In this document: in pieces, positions 1 to 64,000 of the stretch
How positions within the stretch are numbered: position 1 is the first letter of the stretch
How the letters are laid out: each line of letters begins with the position of its first letter
Assembly (NCBI GenBank): GCA_965178125.1
Contig: OZ237735.1
Coordinates: forward strand, 1,550,001-1,614,000
Direction: 5' to 3'
DNA from: Bilabrum cf. latius
Taxonomy: Eukaryota
Length of the DNA: 64,000 nucleotides
Notes under the pieces: model-generated
Told to the model about the DNA's origin: nothing
Seen by the model: the letters and a program-made list of their open reading frames with translations, nothing else
Databases searched by the model: none
Made by a program: the position numbers and the translations under genes

Positions 1-1844
1 CCTTCAGGTGATCGTGGCTGTGAATCAGCCGCTGGAGAAGCACGATCCTCTCGTAGTGGGCCTCGGCGGCCTCGTCAGGGTCCACGGGCTTGGAGGTCTG
101 GTCGTCGATGGGGAATCCCAGGTAGTAGTCAAGCAGGGCAGCCAGCTGCGCGGTCAAGCGACCGCGATCCGAACGCACGAACTGGCTGCCGCGGACTGCT
201 AGCAACAGCCTCGAGTCGTCGAGCAACAGCCTCGAGAAGCGACGGGTGGGGTACTGCGACAGGAGGTCCACAAACAGCTCCATCAGGCGCTCCAATAGCC
301 TGCAAAGGCCTACGTGCGGGGCAACTGCCGCGTCCTACGGGCGCTTTTCCTCATCTTCCACCGGTCCACTCGAGCTGCTGCTTTGCATGGGAATCGCCTG
401 GCGCGCTCTATCGATCTGAGTGTCGCACTCGCGAACCGCGAGCACCGCCAGCCGAACTAGCGCAGCAAGCAGCCTCTCGGCATACCAAGGCTTTGCTGCC
501 GCCAGCAAAGCAGCAGTGTCCCCTGCCCCCTCCTTTAAAGACGCGGAAGACCCTTTCGTGTTGCCAGGAGCGCCGGCATCCGGCTCGGTCCTGGACCGCT
601 TCGCAGCTGGCCCCGTCCCATCACTTGCACCTGCAGCAGCATCACTGCTTGCAGCTGGGCGGTACAGGGCCGGGGGCGCGCTCGATAGCGACCTGGTCGC
701 CCTTCTGGCCACGATTTTCTGCCAGAATCCTTTGAGGCCTGGGTGCCTCCTGAGTTCCCTGCTGACCGCGCCTGGGGTAACGCAGCCCCACGTCGGCAGA
801 GACACGAGCTGCATCACGTTCTTTCGCACTGTCGGGTGCTCGAGGCTCTGAAAGCACCGGATAATCGTGCTGATGAGAAGCTGGGACTCAGGATAGGTGA
901 GGGCTTCACCGGGACGCCGTGACGGCACCAGGTCATCGGGTGGGCTGTACCCTGCATCGGCCGAGCCTCCTGCACTCCCGTTGCTGCTGCTACTCTTCCC
1001 TCGCTTCGTCCTCGATTCGGCGGCCTGGGCTCCGTCAGAACCCACGCCAACGATAGAGGCTCCCGCAGGACCACTTCCTGTCCCGCTGGAGGCAGTACCG
1101 GCGCCTGCCGCAGCCGCAGCTGCAGCGACGTCCGTCGACTGAGTCTGCTCGTGCATGAATGCGTCTCCCATTGCAGCCTCCCCGTCGTCGTCATCCGGAA
1201 CGTCCTCGACACCTTCATCACTACTAGCCATATTTGCACTTGATGGTACCCCTCCGATGCGCGAAGTCTGCTCGCCGGTCCAAGGAAGCGCGAATTCGAG
1301 TAGCGACGACTGCAACCTGGCGATGAAACCAGCAATGCGCTTCTCGGCTGACGCACCTGACCCGAATCCCTGCCACATATCGGCATTTTCGCGGCCTTTT
1401 TCGTTTATAATAGCACACATGAGTAGAACATGCTCCAAACTGGACGCTTGGACATCAAAATGCGGTGCTAGCAGCTGCTCTAAGGCCCCACTCAGCTCCA
1501 GCAACTTTATGCCCCTTGAGTTCAGGGGTCGAGAGGCACCACCACCAACATAGTTGTAATACAAGTCAAGTATCAATCGGCTTATGACAGAAGTACCTAG
1601 GTTCGATGTACCGTTTGCCTGCGCAGTGGTGCCAAGCGATATGAGTACGAAAACACGAATAGGCTGGTGTACAGGGAGGCAATTCGGTGAGTGAACCAGT
1701 GAAAACTCTTACAGATGCCCAAGTTGCGCTAGCAACCCCCGTAATTGGATCTGACAGCACTGTTTCTGCTGTAAGTGGAGCATAGTGTGGCCTTGTTGAT
1801 CGATCCGTGCGCGGTCTGGAGCGCTTGCTTCCAGCCCTTGACAT
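1..1844 (-). CDS. AQR: Intron-binding spliceosomal helicase Aquarius, N-terminal part (runs off the window start)
   Basis: ATG at 1844; GT-AG intron 1712-1619 joins exon 1 in frame to the 335..1576 ORF. Motifs LLELSGALEQLLAPHF, INEK, CFQSLE..VRK.V..LVSLP.W. After the in-frame TAG at 335-337 the frame continues with LERLMELFVDLLSQYPTRRF, matching the Aquarius N-terminal domain. Confidence 0.85.
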
Positions 1845-2036
1845 TTTACTCGCAATGACGAGGAGCAAAGTATATTAAGTAAGAATTGCGACCTGTGAAA
1901 TGACTACAGTCTGCTTCTCGGTGGTTTTGGGAGGTAATTATCAGCAACTCAATTTTGAGGCATATTATCGTCACGATCGGAGCATTAGGGAATCCAGGAG
2001 ACCGCAACATCCACGCATCATTGCGCTGCTACAACG

Positions 2037-5000
2037 ATGGCGGCAGCAAGTGGCAGTTCCACAGAGGCTTCAGCTTCTAAGTCTGCTGAAGAGGCAGTTC
2101 AGTCGCTACCTCAGGGTATTGATGACTTCGTATTTGCCTTGAAGGATAGGTTCGGGTTCCCAGCCGCAGAGACCGAGGTTCTCGAGTATTGGCAGAACAC
2201 CGACGCTTTCAAGCAGCAACTTGAGCTCACAAAGGACTGCCCAGAGTTTACATTCTACGATGGACCGCCATTTGCTACCGGTGAGTCGAGTGTGGAATAC
2301 TCCCAAGATTCCGATGAACATGCCACCTTTCTTGCGCGTCCCAGAGTTCTCGTTTAGCCTCATTGAAGCATGATCGAGCAGTCTCTCAGCCCTACTGCTG
2401 TATTTCGACCCGCAGGCACTCCGCATTACGGTCATATCCTTGCCGGTACGATCAAGGACGTTGTCACTCGGTATGCCACGCTCAAGGGCAGGTACGTGAA
2501 GCGTCGGGCCGGTTGGGACACGCACGGCCTCCCGATCGAGTTCGAAATCGACAAATAGTACGACATCAAGAGCAAGGCCGACGTTATGGCGCTCCCCGGC
2601 GGGATCGCTGAGTACAACCGCAGGTGCCGCGCCATTGTGATGCGGTACACGGCCGAGTGGGAGAGCACCGTGGGCAGGCTCGGGCGGTGGATCGACTTCC
2701 GCGACGACTACAAGACCATGGACCCTACCTTCATGGAGAGCGTCTGGTGGGTGTTTAAGCGACTCTTCGACAAGGGCCTCGTGTACAGGGGCTTCAAGGT
2801 GATGCCCTACTCCACGGGGTGCACCACCCCCCTGTCCAATTTCGAGTCTGGGCTCAACTACAAGGACGACATCGCCGACCCGGCGGTGGTGGCTGCTTTC
2901 CCCATGACAGGCACCAGGCACGAATCAGCCACCGGACCCATGCCCGAGTTCCCCGGAGGAGGTCCGAAGGGGGTGGAGCTTGTGGCTTGGACGACCACGC
3001 CGTGGACTCTTCCGTCCAACCTGGGGCTGTGCGTGCACCCCGAGATGGAGTACGTTCTCATCCGGGACATCAAGACGGGCACTCGCCGCATTCTCATGAA
3101 GGCAAGGCTCGAGCAGCTGTACCACGGCCTCAAGAAGGCCAAGAAGTACAAGGGAGGGGAGTTCGAGGAGCTGGCGTCATACAGTGGCAAGCAGCTCGCA
3201 GGGCTGCAGTATGAGCCCCTCTTCGACTACTTCGTCAAGGACCCCCGCGTGGCCGGGCAGGGATGGCGCGTCCTCGTTGATGAGTACGTCACGGATGACT
3301 CGGGTACGGGTGTTGTGCACCAAGCCCCTGCCTTTGGTGAGGACGATTTCCGAGTGTGCCTCGGGCACGGCGTGATCAAGAAGGACGGCGGGGTGCCTTG
3401 TCCCCTGGACGACAAGGGTGCCTTCTCGAACGAAGTGCCCGACTTCGAGGGCATGTACATCAAGGATGCAGACCGCGAGATCATCAAGAACGTCAAGGCG
3501 AGGGGGCGCCTGGTTCAGAACGAATCCATCAAGCATAGGTATCCCTACTGCTGGAGGTCCGACACGCCGCTCATCTACAGGACCGTGCCCTCCTGGTTCG
3601 TCAGGGTCGAGAGCATCAAGCACATCCAGCGGGAGGCGGGAGATGCCCACATCAGGCCGGCCGACCTTGATATCGCTGATGCCGTGCGTGCCGCGCACGC
3701 CGGGGAATCGTTCGACCCAAGGGCCGCCGCGGCCGCGGGTGGTAGCGGTGGCGGAGCCAGCAGCTAGCCCGCAGCATCCGGTGCTGGTGCCGACACCATC
3801 TCTGAGGACGACGTCGGCCTGCTGGCCAACAACGCGAGGACGCACTGGGTGCCCGAGCACATCCGGGACGGCCGCTTCCACAACTGGCTCAAACAGGCCA
3901 GGGACTGGGCCGTGAGCCGCAACAGGTACTGGGGCACGCCCTTGCCCATCTGGTCCTCGGAAGACGGCAAGGAGATCGTGTGCGTGGGGTCCATCGACGA
4001 GCTGGAGAAGCTGTCTGGCGTGCGAGTGACGGACCTGCATCGCGACACTGTCGACAAGATCACCATCCCATCCAGAGAAGGCAACGGCGACCTCAAGCGG
4101 GTGGAGGAGGTATTCGACTGCTGGTTCGAGTCGGGGTCCATGCCCTACGCCCAGGTGCACCACCCCTTTGAAGGCGAGGAGGAGGAGCAAAAGTTCCTGC
4201 GCGATCGATTCCCGGCTGACTTCATCGCTGAGGGCATCGACCAGACCCGGGGCTGGTTCTACACGCTCATGGTGCTCTCGACGGCCCTGTACCACCGGCC
4301 CGCGTTCAAGAACGTGGTCGTGAACGGCTTGGTCATGGCAGAGGACGGCAAGAAGATGAGCAAGCGACTGAAGAACTACCCCGCACCCGAGCTGGTGCTG
4401 GACGAGTTCGGAGCCGACGCCCTCCGGCTGTACCTGATCTCTAGCCCCGCCGTCCGCGGTGACGAGGTGAACTTCTCCAAGGCTGGCGTGCACGGTGTCA
4501 TCCGCGACGTGATGCTTCCTTGGTACAACGCCTTCAGGTTCTTCGCGCTGGGAGTGGCTCAGTACGAGGAGAACAAGGACGAGGGCGTGCCATCCTTCGG
4601 TCCCGACCTGGAGGTGGCCAAATCGTCTCGGAACATCCTTGACCGGTGGATCATGGCAACCATGCAGAGCCTCCTTCGTTTCGTTCGGTCCGAGATGGAG
4701 GAATACAAGCTCAACACCGTGGTGCCCCGCCTGCTGCAGACGGTCCAGCAGCTGACGAACTGGTACATCAAGCTCAACCGCGGCAGGCTGCACTCCAAGG
4801 AGGGTGCTGACGAGGCGCGCAAGTCCCTCGCGGTTATGTACGAGGTCCTGGCGCTGCTGAGCACGCTCATGGCTCCTTTCGCGCCCTTTTTCTCCGAGTG
4901 GAGCTACCTGCGTCTCAGGGCGCTCCATCCCCTGCAGGGCCAGCACGCCGACAAGCCCACAGAGTTCGGCGCTGCCCTGTCGGTGCACCACCTCCGCCTT

Positions 5001-6653
5001 CCCGCCTTCGACCAGTCGCTTATCGACACTCAGATCGAGAAGCGAGTCATCGTCATGCAGCGGATCATCGAGTCGGCCCGGTCCGTCAGGGAGCGGATCA
5101 AGACGAGCCAGCGGATCCCCGTGCAGTCAGTCACGATCGTGCACCCGAGCGCGGATCTGCTCGAGGGTGTGGAGGAGCTGGCCGAGTACATCAAGCAGGA
5201 GACCAACTGCTTCGAGATGCACCAGTCGCAGGACGTGCGCAGCGTCTGCGAGCTGTCCCTCAAGCCCGACGCGCGCAGGCTGGGCAAGCGGCTGGGCAAA
5301 GAGTTCGGCGCGGTGCGAGCTGCAATCTCCAAGGCCAACGCCGAGGAGGTGCTTGCTGAGCTGGACGCTGGCAAGACGGTTTCCATGGCCGACGTGCCAC
5401 TCAGCAAGGAAGACTTCGTGTTCGAGCGAGTCTTCAAGGGCGATACGACAAAGTATGAGGCGCAGATCACGCCAGTGTCTTTCGATGGAGTGGGCGGGTC
5501 GACAGGCGCATCGTCGGAGAGGGTGGCTGACCTCGTGGTCTACGTGAACAAGGAGCAGAGCGACGAGCTCTGGTCCATGGGCGTGGCCCGTGACATCGCA
5601 TCCAAGCTGCAGCAGCTGCGCAAGAAGGCCAAGCTCTTCCTCACCGACAACGTGCGGACCCTCGTCCGGGCGCGTCCTCGCACGGACGCGGAGCGCGCCA
5701 TCGTTGCCCTGCAGGAGGCACTGAGCCACAAGCCGGCGGCGGCCGCAGCGCCCGCGCCGGCACCTGCCAAGGGTAAGGGCAAGGGTAAGGGCAAGGAGCA
5801 GGGCGCAGCCAAGGGAGGCGCCGCTGCGAAGGGAGCGGCTGCCAAGGGCGGGGCCAAGAAGGAGGCCAAGGCCGAGAAGGCCCAGACTGACACGGAGAAA
5901 GCAGCAGCCAAGCCGAAGTCGGGTCAGAAGCAGAAGACGCCCAAGGCAGAGGTCGACCTCGAGAGCATCCCAGAGGACCAGCTGTCCAAGTCCCAGCGCA
6001 AGAGACTGGAGAAGTTGAGGAAGAAGGCAGGCAAGCGGGGCGACGCCAAGGCCAAGGCGGCCGCCTCTGGTGCCGGCGAGGAGGAGAAGCAATCGTGGAT
6101 GACCTCGCGGTCGCCTGCCGAAGGCGCCCAGTTTGTGATGGACTCGATCGGCACGAACGCGGCGCTTGTCGTCAAGCAGCTGCGCCAGATGGCCGTGCCA
6201 CTGTGCTCCGCCACGATGCCGGCTGCTGCCGGCGAGATCGCCCGCGATGTAGTGGCCCTCGAGGGCGACGTTGTGGCAGAGCTGGTTCTGACGAGAGAGA
6301 CCTGCTTTGCAGGCGACAGGCAGCTCCTGGTTGAGGCAGCCAAGGCTGCGGGGGCTTCCAGCGACGAGGCTGCGCAGAACGCCGCGTCTGCGGTTGAGGC
6401 GCTGATGCCCACTGTGCTTCGGTCAGACCTGTGCGCCATGGCTCCCGAGGAGGGCTCCCAGTTCGACCTGGTCGTAGATGCAGGGGACGGGAAGAAGAAG
6501 AGCGAGATGCTCACGCTGCGCCTGCAGAGGGGTAAGCACGCGTTCGCGTCGGATGCCGAGATGGTGCGCGGCTCAGCGGGAGCTCGGGCTGAGCTGGAGC
6601 AGGCGGGCTTCGGTCGTCTCGCTGCCGCGCTTGCCGAGTTCAAGGACCTTTGA
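2037..6653 (+). CDS. IARS1: Isoleucyl-tRNA synthetase, cytosolic type
   Basis: Intron 2281-2415 (gtgag..cgcag) gives [16 protein letters not shown]. Also [45 protein letters not shown] and KMSKR. In-frame TAG at 2556-2558 and 3765-3767; ends TGA. Confidence 0.97.
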
Positions 6654-6889: not shown

Positions 6890-9800
6890 TCAGTACGGCG
6901 TGTCGCCCATGAAATACGCAGAAAAGGTGCCTCCAGGCGCGCTGGTCTTGTTCGAGATAGTGTGGTCGCCGTCAAGGATATCGAGGCAGCCCACGACGTT
7001 GTTCACGAACAAGTGCGTGTCATCGCAGCTCTACACATTGACGAGCTCCTTCTGAACCCCGTTGAACCAGTTGTAGAAGCCGCCCCCCGCCATGACCACG
7101 CTCTTGCTGTTGGTGATGCTGATGCCCCACGCTGTGGGAGGTGCCTGCCAGTATGGCGACTCAGTTTGGGCACCCACGATCGTGACCCGGCTGCTGTCAC
7201 TGATGTTGAACTGATACAGGGACGAATGCTCGAAGGCAACGCCGTATAGCGTAAGCCCCGACACGCCATGCGCCAGCAGTCCTCGGGGACTGTCCACCGT
7301 GAGCTCGTCCCCCGAGTTGATGTCGTGGTCTGCCACCCAGCCCCACATGGAGGAGAGGTATCCTCCCGAAGAGGGCGTCACCTCAAGCAATGCCCAGGTC
7401 TTGGAGTACACGCGGTGGTACACGTCGTGCACGAACGACTCACCCTCCACGCCGGACCATTGGAAGATGATGCAACCAGGCACGTCACCGTTTGCCTCCG
7501 TGGTCAGCATCAAGTCCTGGATCGAGCCCTTGTATTGATCGGCCGTTGACAGCATAGGGACCGGGGCGTTGGCGTTCTTGAATGCAGGGGCCTTAGGATT
7601 GGCCAGCAGCACGGACTAGCCGTCACCGACGAGCGAGACACCAGATGGCACCTCGATCGTGTCGCTGAGGAGGTAGCGGCCGAATGGCACAAACACGATG
7701 TCGCTGCCACTCTTGAGCGCCTGTTGAAACGCGGCTGTGTCGTCGGCCTTGCCGTCTCCCTTCGCTCCGGCGTCCAGCACGTTGGCTACGGACCCGTCGA
7801 CAGCGGGTCGCGTGACGTAGGGAAGGGGAGCGTTGGCACGCGCAGGTTTGAAATCGCCTTGGAAGCCCTGCACTGCCTTTCCGTTCTCATAAAAGTACCC
7901 CTGTCGCCAAGCCCTCGTGAACGTCTAGCCGTTCGGGTTCCCTGCGAGACCGTTGGTGATGTTGGTGACGCGCGTGGTCGTGACCCGGTCAAGCAGTACC
8001 CCCGGGACCTTCGCTGGGAAAGCAGTCTAAACGGCAGTGCCAACGTCTGAGAAGGTACTGTCGATGACAGCGATGCTGGTGGCCCCGCCGATGAACTGCA
8101 CTCCAACGGCACAGCCACTGATGTTGGCCTGCTGCAGCACAGTGTACCAGTTCCAGATCAAGTTCAGGCAGGGGCCAGTGGTGTACTGGTTGCCCTGGAT
8201 GGTGAGACCCAGGATATGGTACTGCTGCGATCCAATCATGGCTGGAGTCTGGCCACCGATGATCTCTAGGCCGTCAATTTGGGTCGGCGACCCGTTTTCG
8301 ATGAAGATGCCCCGCCCGCTGCTGCCCGCATCAATAGTCACGTTGTGGATGTTGGAGCCCTGAGACACTGCCCAGTGGAGTCCTGTTGTGCTTGGACCGC
8401 CGCCCTCCAGACGCAGGACGATGTTCTGCAGCATGTGGTAGAAGTTGCCCGTGTGTTCCCCGGTGGGATCCATGGTGGCACTCATGGCGTAGGCGGGCGA
8501 GGCGCCGGACTAGAGGACGATCACTGGGCGGCACTTCCAAGAGCCATAGATCGCCGTGTCGAAGTACATCTCTAGCTGATCGGAGATGATGTACGTCCCG
8601 GGGGGAAAGTACACAGTGGCATGGTTCAATGTGGTGAACTTAGGCGACCTCCCCTCGGTGAGCGCCGCCTGGAGCGCTTTCGTGTCGTCGGTGCGCCCGT
8701 CTCCCTTGGCTCCATAGTCCTTCACGTTGCGCCAGCTCGACCCGTGCTTCTGGTTGTCGTACCAAGTGTCGCACTGGTCACCGACGGTCCCATCAGGAAG
8801 CCTCTCCCCGTCATCTCGTGCCACTCCAGCACCGGCGACTTCGCTCGCGACGTGCCTTGCCTCGGTCGGCTCGCTGACGGCCTCTGGGTCTCCCAGGATC
8901 GTGAATCGGACGTCTGCCGGTGCAGCATCTCTCGTACTCGGAGCTGTGGCATTCGGGGCGTAGTGGTCGCACGACTGCGAGCAGGGGAACCGCTTCTCCT
9001 GGACGCATTCCGCCACCAGGAAGGCGGGCACTTGGCCGTTCTTCTTCCACCAGCTGACGAGGGAGTCCTTGTAAGTGTACCCCTGCACCTTCAGCTTGTC
9101 GTGCACAAGATCGATGTCGCCGCAGTGATCGAAGCAAGACGGCATCCACAGAGCGTCCTTCTTCCCCCCCGCGATGGCCGGCTGCACCTGCTGGATCGAT
9201 GCGAGCATGGTGCCCTGGAAGTACTCGATGAACTCGAACACCAGCTTCTTCACGGCGGGGTCCTTGGGATCCTACGGGGCAAAAAGCTCTCCGTACACCT
9301 GCTGGCTGTCCGCCGCATTTTCTCCTATGTGCACGTCGGACTTGATGTACTGGTACGCAGTGTCGAGAGAGAAGCAGTAGAAGGAATCCACGCCGTGCTC
9401 GGCCTGGCACTCGGCAGAGATGGAGTGCCTGCTGTCCCACAGAGTGCTGATCTTGGGGTTGTAGGGCGGCAAGAACTTGCCCTCCTTCCAGGCGTCAAAG
9501 ACGGTCACGTTGGGGAAGAACCAGCCGGCCTGCGGTGCGCCGCGCACGATGCTGTCAGGAAGCTCGCCCGCGAGGAAGTCCACCGAGTGAAACGCGCCGA
9601 TCGCGCCCGCAGAGCATCCACTCAGGAGCGTGCTAGTAGCCTCGTTCAATCCATGGGAAGACTTCAGATCTTGCAGAATCGTTGCGAAGTTTGGTCGCCC
9701 AGAAAAGTATAGCCCCCACGTCTCATTCGTAGGGGCAGTCCGGCCACCGAGATGTACATCGCCGGTGCAGTATGGAACAAACACGCGATTCGAGTTACAC

Positions 9801-10099
9801 CACAAAGGGTTCACGCTGCAGTCAGAGCTGAGCACGTTGTCAGGTAGGTCTCCGCTCGCAGCCCAATTCTTGGAAGATCCTAGGTCAGTTTTCGCCCGCG
9901 CCTTGCAGTCTGCTTCGGTCTAACACGCACCACCACCCTCCATAAAAATTACCCACGATGACTTCTCGCCGCTCGGCGCCGCATCAAAGTAGTATCCGGC
10001 TGGAGAGCCGTCAAGACAACGCGTGGGTGACAGAAGCTTCAACGACAGATCACGGGCCGCCAGAGCTGTGCCCAAGGACACAAGATGCAAAAGCTTCAT
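6890..10099 (-). CDS. Secreted 1069-aa fusion: pectin-acetylesterase/Notum-like esterase plus GH55-like (pectate_lyase_3) double beta-helix
   Basis: One frame from ATG 10099 to TGA 6890 when 7 TAGs (9920, 9272, 8510, 8027, 7925, 7616, 7031) are read through. Hydrophobic N-terminus; CLDGSPAGYY, FMEGGGAC, VPYCTGDVHLG, GCSAGA; then RNVKDYGAKGDGRTDDT..VYFPPGTY, a second GAKGDGKADDT, and WGWVADHD. Confidence 0.85.
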
Positions 10100-10256
10100 G
10101 AATAATGCAACGATTTAAACCCTTCAAGAATAAATACCCAGCAATCTCGCTTTGTTGGGGTCGTCCTTGCTTCCAAGTGAAGTTTGTAGGCGACGTGTGC
10201 ATCGGGTTCGGTTCGCCACGAAGGTTCGTTGCGTGAGGGAACGCGCGGCAATTTGA

Positions 10257-13200
10257 TTATTCACCCTAGTGGAGCATGCCAACTCCTGCCAGCGATTCGT
10301 CCAGCATCCCAACCGCCATCAGAGACCGCTCTACAACGTCATCCACTGCGGGTGCTACCGCCCCGCCGTGCCGAGCCTCCCCCTGGAGGAATTCGTCCCT
10401 GCCGCCGCCCTGCCCCTGCACCACCCACCGCGGCCCTCTCCCGCCCTCGAGCCCATCAAGCAGGGACTCATCCACAGACCGGCCGGCAGCGTCTCTTTCC
10501 TGTTCGTATGGACGGCGCTAACCCCTACCCCGGCCCTACTAATCCCGATCCCGACCCTGATCCAAGCCCAAGGCATGGCCCGCATCCCAAGGAAATGGTG
10601 CAAATCGATCGCGGTCGTGCGAGCCTGCCGCGAGCCCGGCCCCCTTTCCCACGGATCGTTCCTCGTCACCGGAGGCGCCCACTGCTCCCGCCCCCTCGCC
10701 CACAGCTCCTAGGATGCGCTCTTCCGCCCTGGCAAATAGGGCAGCGTCAGCCGCGCTCTCGTTCAGCAAGCGCTTGCCCACTGGGGACCGCCGAATGGCT
10801 GCGTCCAGACCCGCCTGCTGACCGGAGTCCGATGTGCCGCTCTGCAGGCGTTGCTTCCTGGCGTTGCTTTCTCGCCTGCTCCGTGGGAAGCGGCGCTCGG
10901 GTAGCGGAGAGGCCGCCGCTGGGCCGATCGAGGCATCTAGGCCCCATGCACCGCTTTGCGATCCGGCCTTTGAATTTCGGGTGCGTATGGCAGCCGGGCC
11001 AGAAGCTCCCTCGATGCTGGCATCTGGTCGGCTGGCCGCGTGCATTTTGTCTGGAGAGTCAGCCACCATCGTGATTTCTCCTTGCAGGATGCCGGCCTGC
11101 TGATCCTACCTCGATGGATCTGCGCCTGGCGATGGAGACGATGCATTGGCCGTGCCTGACTGTCCTGCGAAGTTGTTCGAGCTTTCGTCCTCTACGTCTC
11201 GGGTCGTCTCTCGGCTGCCCTCTGCGATGGTTTGGTCCTAAATCCTCCTCTTCCAGCTCGAGCCGAGCGCGGGCATGGCCACTGCCGCGCTCGGTCTGCC
11301 TGCGCGGTGCTTTGGAATCGCTGGTCGGCCAGCGCTCCGGCCACTCTTGCCGCTCTCAGTGGCAGTGGCGTCCATGATGTCCCCCCAAGACTTGACGCTC
11401 GAGTGGTCTGGGTCTGGGCCGGTTGCACGGCGGTCCATCTCACGGGGTCTTGTTGTCGATTCAGAAATACCTCGTGCAGCATGCCCGTTTGCTGAAGCGT
11501 CACGCGGAGGAGCTTTCCTCCTCGGCTGCTGGTCCGGGGCGGCGGACCGTGGCTGCTGCCTGTGCGCGTTGCGCAACGTTCCCACCAGTCCTTTTACAGC
11601 AGCCGTCCTGTCTTGCTGCATCGAGTCGTCCATATTCGCGGCTGTGCCCACCGCAAAACTGTCTTCTAGCTCGGCGGGCGCTCGCCCGTCCTCGACCTGC
11701 CGAAGCAGGAACGCCCTGATGCGCTGGTCTCGCTTCCGCCACTACTCATCTCTCTTCGACTGGGCCTCGGCCTCCCTGCGCTTCTACTCCTCCAGAAGCT
11801 GCTGCTTGCGTGTGCGTGCTCGCTCGATGGCTCGCTTCCGAGCCAGTTCTACAAGTGTCTTTTCGTCTACGTTCTCCCTTGGTTGCAACGTCGACTCGCC
11901 TAGCCCCCTCTGCCGCGGATCTCCGGCTGGGCTGCCGTGGCTTTCTCTCGGTGGCTGGCGGCTCGATGGGACACTTCCTGGCTAGCCATCAGCGGGGGTG
12001 TAGACCTCCGATGGGCTGGGGGCGATTGTACCTCGGCTACTGCGGCGCTTGCTGCCAGTAGCTGTCCGCCTTCTCGCCTCGTTCTTGGGCTTTTCGATCT
12101 CGTCGAGCTGGGCCGTCGTGTCGAGACCGAGCAGCATCGCCTTCTCCTTGCGTAGCGGGTCCGACGAGCGGGTTTCCGTTGCAGGTGATTCCAGCTCCTG
12201 TTGCCTCTGGCTGATGTCTGTGCGGTGACCCGCCGCCCGACCTGGCGCTCCACTCGCAGACCTCTGGGCGTGCATGCCAACGAGAAGCTCGGAGGCCGGA
12301 GGGAGCGGCCTCGGCTGCTGCCTGCGCCTTCGCGCGGGAGCAGCAGCCGCGCCAGCGCCCGACCTGCACGAACCGCGGTCTTGAAGGCCCTATTGACTTG
12401 CAAGCTGCGTCTGCTTCTCTATCTTCTGCTGCTTTTGGTGCTCTGCAGCAGCCTGTTGCTTGGCCTGTCGAACCATTGCACGGGCCTTGGCCGCCCGCTG
12501 CTAGGCGGCCTCTCGCCTGCTCTCCTCTTGCAGCCGCCTGCGGACGTCGATCAGGTTCGTGGACTCCTGCTCGGCCCGGAGCTTCTTCTCCTTCTCGGCA
12601 CGGGCGCGTTCCGCTGCTCGTTTCCGGGCTCGTCTGCGAGCCTCGGCAGGATCGACCTACGGAATCGACGGCGGATGAGCATGCGGGATCTCTGCATCGT
12701 CTGCCTGTTGCTGTGTCCGAGCAGATGCAGGGCGCTGATGTAACGCATCTCTCTATGGCTACTCTCCTGCCGAGCGAGCAGCACGATTTGGTCCCTGTGT
12801 ACCTCCGAAGTCGTGATCCTCTCGTCGCTCTTCGTGGGTGCCGTAGCCCCACCTGCCTTCGCGATCAAACCCTCGGCTGTTGCCCAACTCGCCATGTGAC
12901 TCTCCCCGGCCACTACTGCCGCTTCGTCGATCATACCCTCGGCTGTTGCCCAACACGCCATGTGACTCTCCCTGGCCACCACTGCTGCTCGGTCGATCCT
13001 AGTGCATCTATCTTGATGGGGGTAACAAACTGCTCTCGTGAATGTTGTGCGATTGTCTGTCTTTCCGACCGGATGCCGGGCGCATCGTGCCGTGCTCAGC
13101 TTCGGCATCCCAGCCCTCCTTAGCCTCGGGCTGCTGCTTGTTTTCGGTGATGCCCTTGAAATCTGCACCATCATCGTCATCGGCACCAGCGATGGGAAGC

Positions 13201-27261: not shown

Positions 27262-27463
27262 ATGTATTCGCAGGCACACAGCTGCCGCGCCAAAAAAATG
27301 AATATTACACGTTCGATGATGCAGGCAGTCCAATTTTCGCAACCAATCCAAGCGCTTCGCATCACCGCGCACCAATTCTTGCTCGCTTCCTCCAGGCAAG
27401 TGCTCCGATCCCGCCCGACGCGCTCGATTTCTCGAAGCCCCACGCACGGAAACAATCCAGCTC

Positions 27464-29024
<1,561 letters not shown>

Positions 29025-29511
29025 GTTTATTGCGATGAAAAGTGTGTTCAAGTCCGAAAGAAGCAACACTGACTGCGCACTCGTCATAGCATTGCCTCCT
29101 TCGTTCGCCGAGTCGCACCCAGGTGATCTAGATCGGGGACCGCCTGTGGGTGGGTGGGCAGAATGCAGAGGTTTAGAATAACCCAGAGGTCTGTACAACT
29201 TACAGAGTACTACGTTCGTGTGCCAATCGGGTGGTGGCTCGCTCGGATGTCGCCACTGGCCAGTGGCCAGTCCAAACCCCCACCGGGTGTTGGGTCGCAT
29301 CCCTCCAGAATGTCGTGGCCGCGGCGTTGTGATACGTTTGTACTTACAGGCGATGGTGTTGAGCCAAGTTGCTCAACACGTACCGCTGTGCCAGACGCAG
29401 CCACGCAGATCTCTTCCCATTGTAGCGAGTGTTTTGGGAACAATACGTATCCTAGTGCTCAGCTCATCGAAGGCATTTATTCAGGCAAAGCACACCGTGG
29501 GGTGAAACACG

Positions 29512-40282: not shown

Positions 40283-40313
<31 letters not shown>

Positions 40314-45546: not shown

Positions 45547-45620
45547 ATCGCTATTGGGCAAGGTTTAGAGCTGTTCTGCAAGCTGTTGCAGTTGGTACCA
45601 GTCATCCGGAGCATATTTAT

Positions 45621-49772: not shown

Positions 49773-51284
49773 TCACGCAGATGCCGATACCTTGGTCCCT
49801 TCCTCCCCCTCTTCCCCCTCCTCCCCCTCCCCTCCCTGCTGCCGCTCGCCCTCCGGTGCATCGCCCGCGCCGTCCCCGCCGTCGCTATCGCTTTCCGGCG
49901 GGGCGGTGGTGTGCTTGGGCGTGACCACGATCCTCTCCTTGTGCGTGCTAACCGCCGTGCGGAAGCCCTCCAGTATGAAGTCGTAGCCCTCTGCCTCCAG
50001 CATGTCGAACATCTGCTGGTTGTGGTCCACCCCTGCCGTCTCAACGGCTATATCCAGTGCCACCCGCGAGATGTCGTGCTCCACCCAGGCCCTCTCGTGC
50101 TGGATCTCACGGATACTCACGCCGGCATCGGCGAGGACCTTGGTGATGGCAGAGATGCCCCCGGGGCGGTCCGACACAGTGGCCTTGAACCGAACCAGCC
50201 GGCCATCCGCGGCCAACCCTCGGTCCATGACGCGCGAGATCGTCACGGTGTCCACGTTGCCCCCGCAGAGGGGCAGCACCACCGTCTTGCCACGCAGGTC
50301 GGGCAGCACCCGCTCCGATGCATCTTCCTCGTGCCACTGCAGCATGGCAGCCAGTCCAGTGGCACCGCCCCCTTCCACCACGCACTTTTCGAGCTCCAGC
50401 AGCCTCAGCATGGCCAGCGCGATGAACCTCTCCTTGACCAGGGCGACGGGGCCCACCAGCTCTTTGCAGAGGTCAAAAGCGTTGGATCCTACCCTGTTCA
50501 CCAAGAGGCCGTCGGCAAGGGTCCGGCCTGCCGGCACGTCCACCACGTGGCCTGCCCTCAGAGATTCGCTGAGGCTGGGAACAGTGGCGGGCTCGGCCCC
50601 GAGCACCTGCACGGAGGGCTTGAGGGTCTTGAGGGCGAGCGCGGAGCCAGCGATCAGGCCCGCCCCGCCGACGGGAATGACGACTGCGTCCACGTCAGGC
50701 ACGTCCTCTGCGATTTCGATTCCCATGGTCCCGGCACCTGCGATCACGTCTGGGTCGTCGTAGCCGTTCACGTAGGCCAGCCCCTCCTGCTCCGAGAGCT
50801 GCATGGCCACCTCTCGGCTTTCCATGAGGTGATCTCCCTCAAGTACTACGTTCGCACCAATGTCTCTGCAGTTCTGCACTTTAGTGAGCGGCGCGATGCG
50901 CGGCATAACCACTGTCACCGGGATCCCAAGATCGACAGCATGGAAGGCGAGGGCCTGGGCATGATTCCCCGCACTTGCTGCGATGACCCCGCGCCTGCGC
51001 TGCTCTGGTGACATCATGAGCAATGCATTACGCGCGCCTCTCTCCTTAAAACTCCCTGTCGGGTGCATGAACTCGTCTTTCACGAACACTCTCGCATCAA
51101 GAAGCCTAGACAGTTTCTTTGACTCGCGGCAAGGGGTCCGATGCACGCGATCGCGGATACGATAGTTGGCTTGAGATACATCTCCGAATGTGATTGCGGG
51201 CGGCACCCTCGTGGATGCCGAAGCACTGGCAGTGAACAGACGATTCGATTTTGCCCTGGCTCCTCGCGCCCCAACAAGAGCCAT
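49773..51284 (-). CDS. ilvA: Threonine/serine dehydratase (PLP-dependent, short form with one ACT domain), with possible transit peptide
   Basis: HPTGSFKERGA, ASAGNHAQ, IAGAGT, PVGGAGL, VVEGGGATGLAA, CGGNVD; ACT-like DRPGGI. Acidic tail; ends TGA; no internal TAG. Start ATG uncertain (51284 or 51314). Confidence 0.9.
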   Translation of the reverse strand: MALVGARGARAKSNRLFTASASASTRVPPAITFGDVSQANYRIRDRVHRTPCRESKKLSRLLDARVFVKDEFMHPTGSFKERGARNALLMMSPEQRRRGVIAASAGNHAQALAFHAVDLGIPVTVVMPRIAPLTKVQNCRDIGANVVLEGDHLMESREVAMQLSEQEGLAYVNGYDDPDVIAGAGTMGIEIAEDVPDVDAVVIPVGGAGLIAGSALALKTLKPSVQVLGAEPATVPSLSESLRAGHVVDVPAGRTLADGLLVNRVGSNAFDLCKELVGPVALVKERFIALAMLRLLELEKCVVEGGGATGLAAMLQWHEEDASERVLPDLRGKTVVLPLCGGNVDTVTISRVMDRGLAADGRLVRFKATVSDRPGGISAITKVLADAGVSIREIQHERAWVEHDISRVALDIAVETAGVDHNQQMFDMLEAEGYDFILEGFRTAVSTHKERIVVTPKHTTAPPESDSDGGDGAGDAPEGERQQGGEGEEGEEGEEGTKVSASA

Positions 51285-53325: not shown

Positions 53326-54772
53326 ATGCAGAAGTTCGGAGACGTGTTCAAGCCTGTCGACGGTGAGTATCTGGGACCTTTTGCAATTTCTCCGTCATTA
53401 TCCGGCCGAAAGCTTCGGAAGTGTCTTGACTTGGAGCTGCTGCGCTGTTGATTGGCTTGTGGCCAAGGGTTTCACGCGTCGTACCTGGTTCTTTCAGCGG
53501 TGTTTCAGCCAGATGGCTCCCATCATTTATTGTTAAAGTTGTTAAGCTTCCAAAAGAGCGCAGATTTCTTCAAGAAGTCTTTCAGCTTCGGCCACAGCGT
53601 GGAGGTTGCTAGCGCCACCGATGCCGGCGTCGTGAGTTTCCCGATTGATCCTACTGCGCTCGTGCTCTTGAATCATTGGTGGCTAGCCATTACCTTTAGA
53701 CAGGTTGTATAAGAATGAACCAGTGCGGCTTGATCATAGGCGGCCTGGGCCTTTCGGCGGCCTTGACTTCTCTTGGTGGCGAGAGCCTTTTGGACCGTTG
53801 AGCTCGATTGGCCGCGAAGTTTATCGCCCATCCTTGCCGATTGTGCGTGCATTCGGCACAGATGTTGGTTGCCCGTGAACGCAATTAGTTTTGACCAGAA
53901 ATCGATGGGCTCTTGCCCCCGAACACTCTTCCATGGAAGATTTGCGACCAGCACCGCCGCTCCCCGTCCTTTGCCGCCTCGATCAATTTTTGCCCCCGCA
54001 GACCGTCACCGGTACCGCCAAGGTGGACGGCTCTAAGTTCAGCAGCAGCCTCAAGGCCAGCAAGTTTGCGTACCAGCGCCTCAATCTCGACAAGTTCGAG
54101 GTGGGCACCGACGGCAAGGTCGCCGCCAAGCTCATCCTCAAGGAGGCCGCCCCCGGCACCGAAGTGACCTTCGAGGCTACCGACGGCACCCGCATGTCTG
54201 CCGCCAAGACCTCCGCCGTGGTGGGCGCCTCCACCAAGCAGTCTGGCTTCACCGGGGATGTGTCCGTGGACGCAGTGACCGCCGCAGTGACCGGTTCCTT
54301 CACCACCGGCTACAAGAACTTCCTCCTTGGCGCCACCGGTTCCGTGGCCACTGGGCTCATGGGCGGCGACAAGGCCGGCCTCACCGGCGTTGACGCCGTG
54401 GTAGGGTACAAGGTGGGCGGCACGCAGCTGGCCGCCAAGACCAAGGACTCGCTCAAGAACCTCCAGATCGGCGTGAGCTCCAACCAGGGCGGCGTGCAGG
54501 TCGTGGGCCGCGTGGGCATGGCCGCCCCCAAGCTGGGATTCTCCGTGGGCAAGGGCAAGGCTCAGGAGGGCGTGACCGTGGAGATCGGCGCCAAGGTGCC
54601 CGTGGACGGCGCCACCGTGTCTGCCGCCGCCGGCATGAACGGCAAGGTGCGCGCCGCCTACCAGCTGAGCGTGTCCAAGTCTGCCTAGCTGACCACTTCC
54701 TTCGAGGTGAACGCCGCCAGCATCGAGTCCGACGACCACAAGATCGGCACCAAGCTGGCCTTCGCCTTCTGA
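53326..54772 (+). CDS. VDAC: Mitochondrial porin (VDAC)
   Basis: Exons 53326-53362, 53564-53631 and 54002-54772 give MQKFGDVFKPVDDFFKKSFSFGH, amphipathic beta-strands and C-terminal HKIGTKLAFAF then TGA. In-frame TAG at 54686; strong C/G-ending codon bias. Confidence 0.82.
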
Positions 54773-55470: not shown

Positions 55471-55834
55471 TCGGACAGTGCCCTTGGTCTTCCGATTGTG
55501 CCGAGCTCTCTTCTTTCAATTTAAAAAATCGAACGTCGTGACACAAATGAAGATGAAGATGCCAATCAGGCGAGGCGACGAGACCTCTGAAATTCGTCTT
55601 GTTTCGTCTTTTAAGTCTCTATCTTGGCATTATCATTTGGATTAATCGACAGAAGCTTCGAAACGAGGTTGGGCAGAATTGACTCGACTCTTGTAGGGTG
55701 CCAGATCGCTTCAAGCTCGTTTGGTTCGCCGGTCGCTGGTTTTCGTTCGTTAATAGTCGGCAGCCAGCAGGCCTGTTATAAATATACATACAAGTATAAA
55801 TTACAAACGTGAAAGTACAGTCCACCCAATCGCC

Positions 55835-57109
55835 ATGGAGCAAGCCGGTCCAAGTTCCGAGGAGGTGATCGATCTCGTCCACAGCGACTCGAGCGAGAGC
55901 TACAACTCCGAAAGTGATTTCGCAGTCCCCGGCAGCGGCAGCGGCACGAGTGCAGTAGCAAGACTATGGACTCGCGCTAGCAGGCATGGCAACCGTGGTG
56001 TGCATTCGAAAGGCAGGGCGCGGTACCCACGTCGCGATCCAGCTGTGGCCATCGTCAAACCTCAGTCCAGAAGTCCCGTGTCCTCTGTGGCGTCAGGGTC
56101 ATCCAGCAGCAGCAGCAGCAGCGCAGTATCGCAGCAGGCGGTGCAATCATCGATGAAGGCGAGCTCAGGTGCAACTGCAGGCGACAGCAGCAGCGCCTCT
56201 CTGGGGCAGAAACGCGGCAGGCAGGCAGTGTCGCGTGTGGAGGCAATGGACGTCTGCTAGGATGGAAGGGCGAAGAGGCGGCGGAGAGAAGCAGCTGGAA
56301 GTGTGTCAGCTGCCGGGTATGCGTGCGAGGTATGCAGGAAAGTGCTGAGCAGCATGGCCAGCTTGAGGAGGCACATGTCCACTGTGCACTTGGGCGAGCG
56401 GAAGCACGAGTGCAGTGTGTGCGGCAAGTCGTTCGGGGAGGCAGGCAATCTCAGGACGCACATGTCCACTGTGCATCATGGCGAGCGCAAGCACGAGTGC
56501 ATGGAGTGCGGCAAGTCATTCGGGCAGGCAGGCCATCTCAGGACGCACATGTCCACTGTGCATCTGGGGTAGCGCAAGCACGAGTGCATGGAGTGCGGCA
56601 AGTCATTCGGGCAGGCAAGCTCACTCAGGACGCACATGTCCACTGTGCATCTAGGCGAGCGGAAGCACGAGTGCATGGAGTGCGGCAAGGCATTCGGGCA
56701 GGCAGGCTCACTCAGGACGCACATGTCCACTGTGCATCTAGGCGAGCGGAAGCACGAGTGCATGGTGTGCGGCAAGGCCTTTGGGATGGCAGGCAATCTC
56801 AGGACGCACATGTCCGTAGTGCATCTGGGGTAGCGCAAGCACGAGTGCATGGAGTGCGGCAAGTCGTTCGGGCAGGCAGGCAATCTCAGGACGCACATGT
56901 CCACTGTGCATCTAGGCGAGCGCAAGCACGAGTGCATGGAGTGCGGCAAGTCATTCGGGCAGGCAAGCTCACTCAGGACGCACATGTCCACTGTGCATCA
57001 TGGCGAGCGCAAGCACGAGTGCATGGAGTGCGGCAAGTCATTCGGGGAGGCAGGCAATCTCAGGAGGCACATGTCCGTAGTGCATCATGGCGAGCGCAAG
57101 CACGAGTGA
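55835..57109 (+). CDS. C2H2 zinc-finger array protein, 9 fingers (87-nt units)
   Basis: Ser-rich N-terminus and basic NLS-like KRRRR; units CxxC-GKSFG-xxxx-LRTH-MSTVH-LGERKHE. In-frame TAGs at 56258, 56570, 56831; ends TGA. Confidence 0.88.
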
Positions 57110-59897: not shown

Positions 59898-61328
59898 ATG
59901 GCGCAAGCCGGTCCAAGCTCCGAGGAGGTAATCGACCTCGTCCACAGCGACTCGAGCGAGAGCGACACCTCCGAGAGTGATTTCGAAGCCCCCGATAGAT
60001 GCATCGGGATAAGCGAAGGAATAAGAGAAAGGACTCGCAGTAGCAGGCATGGAAACCGTGGTGTGTATGCGAAAGGCAGGGCGCGGTATCCACGTCACGA
60101 TCGGTCTAGTAGATATAGTCCTGTGTCCTCTGTGGCGTCAGGGTCATCCAGCAGCAGCAGCAGCAGCGCAGTATCGCAGCAGGCGGTGCAATCATCGATG
60201 AAGGCGAGCTCCGGTGCAGCTGCAGGCGACAGCAGCAGCACCTCTCTGGGGCAGAAACGCGGCAGGCAGGCAGTGTCGCGCGTGGAGGCAATGGACGTCT
60301 ACTAGGATGGTAAGGCTAAGAGGCGGCGGAGAGAAGCGGCTGGAAGTGTGTCAGCTGCCGGGTATGCGTGCGAGGTATGCGGGAAAGTGCTGAGCAGCAT
60401 GGCCAGCTTGAGGAGGCACCTGTCCGTGGTGCATCTGGGCGAGCGCAAGCACAAGTGCAGCGTGTGCGGCAAGGCATTCGGGCGGGCAAGCAGTCTCAGG
60501 ACGCACATGTCCACTGTGCATCATGGCGAGCGCAAGCACGAGTGCATGGAGTGCGGCAAGGCATTCGGGCGGGCAAGCAGTCTCAGGACGCACATGTCCA
60601 CTGTGCATCTGGGCGAGCGCAAGCACGAGTGCAGCGTGTGCGGCAAGTCATTCGGGCTGGCAGGCTCACTCAGGACGCACATGTCCACTGTGCATCTAGG
60701 CGAGCGCAAGCACGAGTGCAGCGTGTGCGGCAAGTCATTCGGGCTGGCAGGCTCACTCAGGACGCACATGTCCACTGTGCATCTGGGGTAGCGCAAGCAC
60801 GAGTGCAGTATGTGCGGCAAGTCATTCGGGCAGGCAGGCTCACTCAGGAGGCACATGTCCGTGGTGCATCTGGGCGAGCGCAAGCACGAGTGCATGGTGT
60901 GCGGCAAGGCGTTCGGGCTGGCAGGCTCACTCAGGACGCACATGTCCACTGTGCATTTGGGGTAGCGCAAGCACGAGTGCAGCGTGTGCGGCAAGTCATT
61001 CGGACAGGCAGGCCATCTCCGGACGCACATGTCCACTGTGCATCTGGGCGAGCGCAAGCACGAGTGCAGCGTGTGCGGCAAGGCATTCGGGGAGGCAGGC
61101 CATCTCAGGAGGCACATGTCCACTGTGCATCATGGCGAGCGCAAGCACGAGTGCAGTGTGTGCGGCAAGGCGTTCGGGCAGGCTGGGACTCTCAGGAGGC
61201 ACATGTCCGTGGTGCATCATGGCGAGCACAAGCACGAGTGCATGGTATGCGGCAAGTCATTCGGTGTAGCAGGCAATCTCAGGAGGCACATGTCCGTGGT
61301 GCATCATGGCGAGCGCAAGCACGAGTGA
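59898..61328 (+). CDS. C2H2 zinc-finger array protein, 11 fingers; paralog of 55835-57109
   Basis: Same N-terminus (QAGPSSEEVIDLVHSDSSES) and same 29-aa unit. TAGs at 60303, 60789, 60963; ends TGA. Confidence 0.88.
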
Positions 61329-61670: not shown

Positions 61671-62564
61671 GCTTGGGGTTCGATGCTTCGTGGCTCGGAG
61701 GTATGCTGTCCCCCATCGCCCTCGTGCTGCTCCTACTCGCTGTCCTGCAGCTCCTCGCGAGCCTTTGTGCCGCCGAGCAACGCCTCGCTGCTGGTGTTCT
61801 TGGGCCCGTCCACCTTGCAAGCGTCATCCTCCTCGTGCTCGTTGTCCTGACAACAAATCTTGTTATATGGACTCGGACATCAGGATTGAAGCAACGGGGA
61901 GCAGAGGTGAGACGGAAGACGAGGTGGGCGCAGGAGCACAGGAGGTGGAGAAGAAGAGGGGGACACCGGCACAGGCGACGACAGTGCGGTGTCAACAGGG
62001 AGAACACAACGGGGGGAAGGGGGCTCCAGGTGCAAGGCACGAGGGAGACACGGGTGGCAGCGGACTGCATGGCCAGCAGCACGCAGAAGGCCAACAGGTG
62101 GGTGGACAGATGGGGCGCACGGCAGGTCGGCCAGGACCGGCGCGTGCAAGCTGAAAGGATAGGGCCAAGGTGGCAATGCTGGGAGCAAAGCACACGGACC
62201 CTAGGGCGGGGAACAGGAACAGGAAGCCATGTGGCGACGAGGCCAGTCGGGTGCATGGGGAAAGTGGTGTGTACATTCGTAGTGTCAGATGAATACCGCA
62301 TTCAGGTGGACCGGTGAAGAACCAGTCGTTCGGGGTGAAGCCCAGTGGGTCCGCGGGACCGGGGGCAGGAATTTTTTCTGCAACTCATCTACAAGCACGA
62401 TCGGCGATCGAGGCACCCGGAGCCGTCTGCCCAAAGTGACAAAGTCCCTCCAATCCATGTGCGTCCAGTTCCCTTCTCGCACATCACTGTCTCTACATGC
62501 CTGCACCGCACATATTATTGGAATTAGGCTGGCCAGCTACACGTCCTGACTGGCAGAATGGCAA

Positions 62565-64000
62565 TTAAACCGAGTCGGCCCCTCCCTTGTAGAACAGGAA
62601 GATCTCCCAGGTCCCGAAGAAGATCTCAAGGGCGACTTCTGCCACGATGAGCCAAATGACAATCCACTCGAGTCTGCTTGAGTGCTACGCCTCCAGCTGC
62701 GTGGACAGCATCTCCAGAAGCTCCCGAATGACATCTAGCCGCTGGTTCAGGAGGTCAACCCGCCGCTCGATGTCCAAATAGGACTGCATCCTCTCGAAGA
62801 TTGGCTCGAACTCGTCCGACTCCCAGAGGAATTCCGGGGTATCCAACAAGTCCGACGTGTTGATGGTGTTTCTCTCCACGAAAAGGAGCCCGATCTTCTT
62901 GGACACGTCCAGCTCGGACAAGCCGACGCGCCCAGTCCTCGCTAGCTCGATCGGCACGCTCTGGGTCTTGGAGATCGTCCTGTTGACACGAGTCTCTAGC
63001 ACGCTCAGCTTGACGCTCTGTGCAAAGGCATACGAAGCAGCCAGCCTCTCGATGGGGTCGTTCGTCCCCAGCACCACCTCGTCGCTGACCACGCGGCTCT
63101 TGGCGCCGTGGCTGAACTCCATGTCGTCGCATTCGATCTCAGACACGGGACCCAGCACCAGGCCCCCGCCCGTCCCACTCGCCCCGCGGCCGAAGGCAGC
63201 AGACAGGAAAGTACCGGTACCGGTTCTGCCCGTGGCTACTGATGCAGACGAATCCTGCTTCCGGAGCACATGCTCGGGGGCAAGCATGGCGGCACCCATA
63301 GCACGCCTGCGGAGTCCATCGGCTCCCGCAGAGTGGTTGACGCTCACTGCGCTGCCGGTGACTGCTTGCATCCCTCGGTGGCTCCACGACTGCCACCCGT
63401 CGCCTTGCTGATGCTGCTGCTGCTGCTGCTGATGTTGTTGTTGTTGAAATCCGTGACCAGCACTGGTGGCGGACCTGCCCCCGGGTTTGCCCATGGCCAG
63501 CCGGGAGGACCCCAGCTGGGAGCGAGATGCACCACTGCCACCTGCACCTTGCCCAGGGGTCCCTGGCCCGACGCCGGAATCGGCTCCGGATCCCGCCAGG
63601 GAATCGTTCTGAAGCAGGGAGGCCGTCGCGGACGCACCACTGCCTGCTCCTCCGTGCAAGGACCCGATCGATCGGATGGGCGACTCCTAAGTGGCGGTGG
63701 TTGAGCTCGGGCCAAGCTCCAGCCCGATCCCGCTCGAGTCGTGGTGGGCAGCAGCAGCCAAAGAGCCATGCTTTCCCTCATGTGATCGGCCGCCGTCTTG
63801 TTCCTTGGTCTCCTCGGAGACGTTGTTCCCTGAGCCGGAGGAGCGGCTGCCCGCGTTGGCCCGCTCCAGCCGGATAGCGCGAACCTCTGCCTCAGCCTCC
63901 GCCGCGGCCGCTGCGGCCTCCTCTGCGGTCTGCTCCGCAACTGCTTTGTCGTAGAGGAAATCTATCTCTGGGTATATGCTGTCCCGGTCCCCGTCATCGT
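62565..64000 (-). CDS. RMD1/DUF155 family protein, 3' part (start lies beyond the window)
   Basis: SYAFAQSVKLSVLE, LLDTPEFLWE, YLDIERRVDLLNQRLDVI, LEA*HSSRLEWIVIWLI (TM helix). TAGs at 63687 and 62685; ends TAA at 62565. Confidence 0.88.

Follow-up and report, generated by a model that had tools for sequence, protein, structure and literature searches.

Changes to the nuclear genetic code are rare, and a split in meaning between UAG and UAA is rarer still, bearing on how the release factor eRF1 discriminates between the two codons. UAG alone has come to encode glutamine in the fornicate Iotanema spirale, the ciliate Protocruzia tuzeti and two phyllopharyngean ciliate lineages (PMC5304391, PMC11687900). 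UAA and UAG together (UAR) are read as glutamine, the type of NCBI translation table 6, in many ciliates, ulvophycean green algae, Hexamita, Streblomastix and the aphelid Amoeboaphelidium protococcarum (PMC11687900). Glutamate is specified by UAG, and lysine by UAA, in Oligohymenophorea sp. PL0344, and glutamate by both UAR codons in Blastocrithidia (PMC11687900, PMC10553269, PMC12153298), while UAG is assigned to leucine in the uncultured rhizarian exLh and to serine in the green alga Scotinosphaera (PMC11687900). Here we analyze the TAG codons of a 64,000-nt stretch of DNA (contig OZ237735.1 of assembly GCA_965178125.1, positions 1,550,001 to 1,614,000; hereafter the window), following TAG-bearing frames in both strands. 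With a probability of about 0.79, we read it as nuclear DNA of a GC-rich, intron-poor, bicosoecid-related stramenopile in which UAG has changed from a stop to a sense codon, most likely for glutamine, with UGA as the main stop and UAA probably a stop as well, a code of the table 15 type.

Compared with these systems, the window is closest to the Iotanema, Protocruzia and phyllopharyngean type (table 15): UAG is sense with glutamine best supported, UGA and probably also UAA act as stops, and UAG and UAA would differ in meaning. It differs in coming from a stramenopile near the bicosoecids, in its GC content of 56-65% and in having UGA as the dominant stop. With the UAR lineages it shares UAG as glutamine, presumably through a mutated tRNA-Gln, but none of the 13,653 codons counted here is an in-frame TAA and three open reading frames (ORFs) end in TAA, so UAA has apparently not been reassigned. 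PL0344 and Blastocrithidia likewise turned a stop into a polar residue one base from TAG, and several TAG columns here hold glutamate in relatives; the strictly conserved TAG columns, however, are glutamine and never glutamate. In exLh and Scotinosphaera, too, UAG alone changed and UAA was kept as a stop; in the window, by contrast, leucine scores -4.1 and -19.2 bits on the TAG columns and serine falls well below glutamine. The full-text literature searched, supplements and papers beyond it excepted, contained no report of an altered nuclear code in stramenopiles or bicosoecids. The mentions of the code in stramenopiles that we did find there concern mitochondria, and in a stramenopile review the single mention of 'genetic code' is a mitochondrial reference (PMC11412368). 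This variant of the code is thus a known one, and its lineage and GC-rich setting appear to be new.

In 20 coding stretches belonging to 18 genes (13,653 codons), we counted 75 TAG codons in frame and neither a TAA nor a TGA, with TAG present in 17 of these genes. Read in its two other frames, the same DNA contains 144 TAG, 56 TAA and 437 TGA over 27,266 positions. TAG is therefore as dense in frame as off-frame (0.55% vs 0.53%) and only TAA and TGA are excluded, an exclusion that is partly circular because the absence of these two codons was part of how the frames were defined. Support that escapes this circularity comes from Pfam matches that run essentially full length across TAGs, namely Phospholip_B (1-486 of 487, spanning three TAGs), Indigoidine_A (1-291 of 291) and PAE (22-349 of 355). 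Taking TAG as sense extends the longest stop-to-stop frame from 961 aa to frames of 2088, 1648, 1428, 1383 and 1074 aa; with TAA as sense the maximum stays at 961 aa. A sequence-only reading of this DNA, made before our analysis, had placed in-frame TAGs from 335 to 63689, and they were located there, from the first, in Aquarius on the minus strand (335-337), to the last, in RMND1 (63687-63689). It had also counted at least 18 TAG-bearing genes, against 17 confirmed here, and had described them as free of frameshifts and internal TGA or TAA, which agrees with our counts within the circularity just mentioned. Its central claim, that TAG is a sense codon, held as well: domains run on across TAG, and the codon stands unchanged in DNA contigs and spliced RNA-type contigs of four studies (below). 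The status of TAG as a sense codon is established to the extent that sequence data permit. The features of the window are as follows.

2..1708, minus strand: Aquarius (intron-binding protein), N-terminal part, running off the window; Pfam Aquarius_N_1st, E 1.9e-53; one TAG (335-337).
2367..6653, plus strand: isoleucyl-tRNA synthetase (IleRS), main exon, ending in TGA; Pfam tRNA-synt_1 (E 1.2e-129), Anticodon_1 and DUF5915; two TAGs (2556, 3765).
6890..10114, minus strand: secreted fusion of a pectin-acetylesterase and a GH55-like beta-helix (exo-1,3-beta-glucanase family), ending in TGA; Pfam PAE (E 3.5e-58), Pect-lyase_RHGA_epim (E 3.1e-61) and GH55 homologs; seven TAGs, five in the GH55 part.
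10257..16523, minus strand: low-complexity open frame of 2088 aa with no family, ending in TAA; a putative single protein; 25 TAGs.
16781..17644, plus strand: LSM12-like protein (LSM plus anticodon-binding AD domain), ending in TGA; Pfam AD, E 6.7e-11; one TAG.
17942..19588, plus strand: phospholipase B-like protein (PLB), ending in TGA; Pfam Phospholip_B, E 1.6e-118; three TAGs (18998, 19187, 19292).
19875..22531, minus strand: coiled-coil, Arg-Ser-rich gene, ending in TGA; RNA-supported introns 21872-22109 and 22306-22403, with more upstream; three TAGs, in the last exon.
23153..27261, plus strand: protein kinase of 1360 aa, ending in TGA; Pfam Pkinase; six TAGs, two inside the kinase domain.
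27464..29006, minus strand: methionine aminopeptidase 2 (MetAP2), intron 28663-28762, ending in TGA; Pfam Peptidase_M24 and PDB MetAP2 (E 1.6e-144); two TAGs (28465, 28387).
29400..32124 (5' limit approximate), plus strand: MOK/RCK-like kinase, RNA-supported introns 29519-29640 and 29846-29938, ending in TGA; five TAGs, one just ahead of the activation-loop PYT (exon 29952-30203) and four in the low-complexity tail.
32178..32543, minus strand: NF-YB histone-fold subunit, single exon, ending in TAA; PDB NF-YB (E 5.7e-44) and Pfam CBFD_NFYB_HMF; one TAG (32385-32387).
33100..34605, minus strand: LSM14/Scd6-like protein, ending in TGA; Pfam LSM14 on two exons; three TAGs in the Sm domain.
34735..39612, plus strand: fusion of PsuG (pseudouridine-5'-phosphate glycosidase) and a PfkB kinase, ending in TGA; Pfam Indigoidine_A (E 1.2e-117) and PfkB (E 1.2e-24); eight TAGs.
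42387..44132, minus strand: alpha-galactosidase with a ricin lectin domain, ending in TGA, used as a control; Pfam Melibiase_2 and Ricin_B_lectin; no TAG in the confident part.
49773..51200, minus strand: threonine dehydratase-like PLP enzyme with an ACT domain, ending in TGA, used as a control; Pfam PALP, E 1.9e-77; no TAG.
53933..54772, plus strand: VDAC-like beta-barrel porin (weak), ending in TGA; PDB VDAC1/2 matches along almost the whole protein (E 4.6e-5 to 4.8e-4); one TAG (54686).
55832..57109, plus strand: C2H2 zinc-finger array (ZnF1) of 87-nt repeats, ending in TGA; three TAGs, two at the finger-linker position.
59898..61328, plus strand: paralogous C2H2 zinc-finger array (ZnF2), ending in TGA; three TAGs, one shared with the paralog and two at the linker position.
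62565..63998, minus strand: RMND1/DUF155, running off the window at its 5' end and ending in TAA; Pfam DUF155, E 4.3e-36; two TAGs (63689, 62687).

Two gene names given earlier fared less well than the rest. The porin assigned to VDAC has weak PDB matches (best E 4.6e-5) and no Pfam porin match, and the identity of the coiled-coil ORF at 19875-22106 as CCDC61 was not confirmed, with no Pfam match.

The TAG codons are faithfully present in independent data. We compared window positions 17800-37700 with contigs, not raw reads, of four runs from four studies (X1, X5, X6 and X8), and no run showed a differing letter or an indel. The contigs of X1 and X5, DNA from two studies, continue through introns, whereas those of X6 and X8, from two further studies, skip 11 stretches of 87-371 nt bounded by GT..AG, or by CT..AC for minus-strand genes. 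Because they skip these intron-shaped stretches, unlike X1 and X5, we take X6 and X8 to be spliced RNA, a status read solely from the joints, with run records that do not state RNA. At least 18 TAG codons lie inside exons covered by the RNA-type pieces, with no differences: three in phospholipase B, three in the coiled-coil gene, six in the kinase, two in MetAP2, one in NF-YB and three in PsuG. Phospholipase B is spanned by an X6 contig (17946-19798) and the kinase by two (23153-25205 and 25299-27308), all without differences; an X6 contig covers PsuG-PfkB at 34796-37700 and an X8 contig covers NF-YB at 32171-32733. Contigs of both runs support the splicing of MetAP2, and their joints define the LSM14 exons at 34528-34605, 34402-34438 and 33858-34312, followed by sequence downstream of the intron 33487-33857. 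All compared contigs break at 25206-25298 in the kinase gene, a repeat of GA-dinucleotide type that codes for a Gly-Ala run. Three escape routes that the sequence-only reading had left for checking are thereby addressed at the level of contigs: an assembly error with TAG in place of CAG, by the identity of DNA contigs from two studies, and both removal of TAG by splicing and its editing to CAG, by its retention in the spliced RNA-type contigs. The same reading had described the DNA as GC-rich, which the 56-65% bears out, and its introns as mostly 90-200 nt; nine of the 11 RNA-supported introns measure 87-122 nt and the remaining two 238 and 371 nt.

Relatives in a metagenome and in other assemblies share the use of TAG as a sense codon. 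A metagenome contig (L001) encodes a MetAP2 with 89% amino-acid and 80% nucleotide identity and the same intron position; on this contig a kinase domain is joined to EF-hands across a TAG, and three TAGs lie inside a SURF6 domain. Two PLB predictions (P0332 and P0485), 97% identical to window positions 17942-19292, end exactly at the third TAG of the window gene, whose frame goes on past this codon and matches the family to its end. The truncation of both predictions at TAG shows that annotation under the standard code cuts short the proteins of this lineage.

For the amino acid, TAG was translated as X, which kept the homolog searches unbiased. The clearest columns point to glutamine. At the MetAP2 TAG at 28387, 120 homologs carry Q113 H4 N2 M1 and no glutamate, and the NF-YB column is glutamine in all five aligned PDB homologs (Arabidopsis, rice, Aspergillus). 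At the third TAG of phospholipase B, glutamine is the plurality (Q56 E25 K24 in 145 homologs, after exclusion of five of the 150 listed matches that exceed 800 aa). The first MetAP2 TAG falls in a variable column (M22 R19 L17 H16 A14 E9 N7 Q5), the IleRS TAG at 2556 in a conserved block reads K78 M16 A7 E6 Q3 in 120 homologs, and most remaining TAG columns are variable surface positions; PDB alignments of MetAP2 and PLB, redundant (human and mouse only) and with variable columns, carried little residue information. When all 20 residues were scored over the 11 alignable columns with HMMs built from homologs, glutamine led with +10.4 bits, followed by lysine (+9.4) and glutamate (+8.3); with weighted raw frequencies and a pseudocount, glutamine reached +5.0 and all others were negative (E -5.2, M -5.5, K -8.3).

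A Codetta-like check, made without local Pfam models, compared Pfam bit scores of the same DNA translated with different residues at TAG; at most nine residues were tried, and only four in the later runs of the zinc-finger, MOK and SURF6 sets. Glutamine scored best for Pkinase (81.7 vs 79.8 for glutamate), for NF-YB (95.2 vs 93.3) and for both exons of LSM14, and near-best for PAE, while arginine was best for PsuG. Summed over nine families and relative to X, glutamine reached +13.8, glutamate +12.0, serine +7.5 and lysine +7.2, the RHGA family being left out because it repeats a GH55 column. Glutamine thus ranks first in the two column scorings as well as in the summed Pfam score, with a lead over glutamate that varies between models from about 4 to 12 bits. 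TAG therefore probably encodes glutamine, the residue that had been proposed from the letters alone, although its lead over glutamate is modest. Among the motifs offered for that proposal, the NF-YB and MetAP2 examples stood up well. The MOK motif proved neutral in its Pfam score and the LSM14 motif showed only a slight preference for glutamine; in the window these two sites read SS-TAG-PYT and DL-TAG-V, and the motifs as given find no match in single frames, that of MOK being interrupted by an intron.

The strongest competitor holds that UAG is a sense codon for glutamate, decoded by a tRNA-Glu with a CUA anticodon, which we consider unlikely. Some ciliates, and Blastocrithidia, are known to use UAG or UAR for glutamate. 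Several observations speak for it and hence against glutamine. At the four TAG sites that can be compared with close relatives, two carry glutamine and two glutamate: in MetAP2, L001 reads GAG opposite the first TAG and CAG opposite the second, and in PLB the two predictions carry Q and E opposite the first and second TAG, respectively. The nearest IleRS homologs carry E, E and Q, one GH55 column is E19/D18 among 46 homologs (E or D in 37 of 46), and the SURF6 domain of the relative scores better with glutamate (89.0 vs 86.2, a difference of 2.8 bits). In the paralogous zinc-finger linkers, 16 of 20 repeats carry GAG and the other four TAG, and the linker Pfam score is slightly higher with glutamate (42.5 vs 41.7). 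All four of these repeats have GGG-TAG where the others have GGC-GAG, and this common form suggests that the linker TAGs are probably one event copied by repeat turnover. Three further points limit the case for glutamine: 42 of 46 homologs have an aromatic residue in another GH55 column, the total lead of glutamine over glutamate shrinks to only about 4 bits with HMMER's own weighting, and a test of neighboring residues came out neutral (Gln-neighbor enrichment 1.39 for TAG, 2.48 for Gln and 0.99 for Glu) and was not used as evidence.

What separates the two assignments are the invariant-Gln columns, to which we found no invariant-Glu counterpart among the TAG columns. Glutamate does not occur in the MetAP2 column, where glutamine fills 113 of 120 positions, nor in the NF-YB column (Gln 5/5), and it is outnumbered in the third PLB column (Q56 vs E25). 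The columns that lean toward glutamate are all variable and contain glutamine too. Since the two residues interchange freely at variable sites and a single base separates TAG from CAG and likewise from GAG, columns of this kind should arise whichever assignment is correct. In the scores, glutamine stays ahead of glutamate by 2.1 or 10.2 bits on the alignments and by a further 1.8 bits on the Pfam families.

Reading UAG as glutamine leaves UGA, and probably UAA, for termination. Of the 18 ORFs whose ends were seen, 15 close on TGA and three on TAA (those of the low-complexity frame, NF-YB and RMND1); TAG closes none. The MetAP2 frame meets its TGA directly after the conserved C-terminus of the family. 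Past their TAA, the frames of NF-YB and RMND1 close again after 8 and 26 codons, respectively, and no domain requires readthrough of TAA. Had UAA been reassigned together with UAG, as in table 6, about 17 in-frame TAA codons would be expected from the CAA:CAG ratio of 95:422, and there is none. Reassignment seems confined to TAG, the pattern of NCBI table 15, on thin evidence as regards TAA, and UAA probably still terminates; a stop function of TAA drawn from three ORF ends is a small and partly circular sample, and counts against this part of the reading. A dual UAG, sense inside genes and a context-dependent stop at true gene ends, is highly unlikely. Such dual meanings are known from Condylostoma, which has codes without a dedicated stop, and for UAA in Blastocrithidia, and in the window one ORF does have a TAG (10268) three codons ahead of its TAA; the complete lack of TAG among the ORF ends and the well-placed TGA of MetAP2 run counter to it.

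That UAG stands for a residue other than these two, whether Lys, Leu, Ser, Tyr or Trp or a non-standard amino acid such as pyrrolysine, is scarcely credible. Lysine comes second in the HMMER-weighted sum (+9.4 vs +10.4 for glutamine) and is the majority residue of one IleRS column (78 of 120), but it drops to -8.3 bits on raw frequencies and occurs at no TAG site of any close relative. One GH55 column favors Trp, Tyr or Phe, but on raw frequencies Leu, Trp and Tyr lie at -19 to -27 bits; leucine and tryptophan, moreover, reduce the score in four of six Pfam families tried, and leucine in a fifth too. The chance that the TAGs are untranslated, as assembly errors, pseudogenes, spliced-out segments or sites edited to CAG in RNA, is practically negligible: we found no support for it, the window is matched letter for letter by the four runs, the 18 exonic TAGs persist in the spliced RNA-type contigs, relatives conserve TAG at the same PLB site, and 17 genes including IleRS, MetAP2 and NF-YB, all without TAA, TGA or frameshift, would be broken.

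The placement of the organism comes from two single-gene FastTree trees. Among the 120 MetAP2 matches listed, all 19 rows that name an organism are stramenopile, as are most such rows among the IleRS matches listed. In the IleRS tree the query joins four sequences (SH 99), one of which (P0190) shares a 90% cluster with the IleRS of Cafeteria roenbergensis. In the MetAP2 tree the query and two metagenome relatives join a pair (SH 99), one member of which clusters with a protein from a dinoflagellate assembly in which a Cafeteria-type IleRS is likewise present. Identity to the Cafeteria-containing clade is only 57-68%, which makes the organism a distant relative of that clade. These trees place it among the stramenopiles, beside the Cafeteria-containing clade; the reliance on two single genes, and on a MetAP2 cluster whose only named member is from the dinoflagellate assembly, weighs against this placement. 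An origin from an aphelid such as Amoeboaphelidium, with UAR as glutamine, was considered and dropped, the best matches of MetAP2 and IleRS being stramenopile and not opisthokont.

It is an even bet that the window represents the first nuclear code change in a stramenopile, with UAG alone going to glutamine in a GC-rich, bicosoecid-related flagellate clade, UAA and UGA being kept, independently of all described cases and under GC rather than AT pressure. The clade so understood comprises the organism of the window, strains 97% identical in other assemblies and the relative from an environmental metagenome, about 80% identical at the DNA level. The sequence-only reading had suggested an independent and undescribed reassignment, which is plausible for a stramenopile near Cafeteria and for which no earlier report was found in the literature searched. 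Were it true, it would add an independent origin in a supergroup for which we found no case on record, and would test whether such reassignments require AT-biased genomes. DNA and RNA data on the organism already exist from several studies, and if it is in culture it would be one more organism in which the accompanying changes of tRNA and eRF1 could be studied.

As a mechanism, UAG would be decoded by a tRNA-Gln with the anticodon CUA, which by analogy with described cases could derive from CUG by a single anticodon change, and eRF1 would be blind to UAG while still recognizing UAA and UGA, again by analogy. ARAGORN detected no tRNA gene in the 64-kb window or in the contigs L001 and L002 of relatives, and no Rfam family was found in the window at gathering scores; the window does not contain the eRF1 gene either. 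If TAG is glutamine, it supplies about 13% of the glutamine codons (75 TAG, 422 CAG and 95 CAA). Gene callers that apply the standard code cut the proteins of this organism at every TAG, and owing to this truncation both annotation and phylogenomic use need translation table 15.

Outside the annotated genes, the segments at 39.6-42.3, 44.3-49.7 and 51.5-53.9 kb were screened by eye. A gene finder based on codon log-odds, with filters on GC by codon position, separated coding from antisense frames poorly and was used only to pick ORFs for Pfam. In the regions 44300-49700 and 39600-42300 GC is lower, at 56-58%, and neither a long frame of coding appearance nor a recognizable protein was seen; they may be intergenic, repeat-derived, or occupied by intron-rich genes.

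Some of the genes are of interest beyond their TAG codons. In the two zinc-finger arrays, one TAG is conserved in both N-terminal parts, and the linker change from GGC-GAG to GGG-TAG alters two bases and was probably carried through the arrays by repeat turnover or gene conversion. The PsuG-PfkB fusion is a single frame of 1625 aa in which the kinase is split by a low-complexity insert of several hundred residues, including a Gln-rich run at about 38000-38035 that mixes CAG and TAG. The PAE-GH55 fusion likewise forms one frame of 1074 aa. The best matches of its GH55 half are a JGI protein (41%), Diplonema japonicum (40%) and D. papillatum (37%), followed by fungi at about 30% and a Pythium match at 28%, and this half could be a gene that moved between protist lineages.

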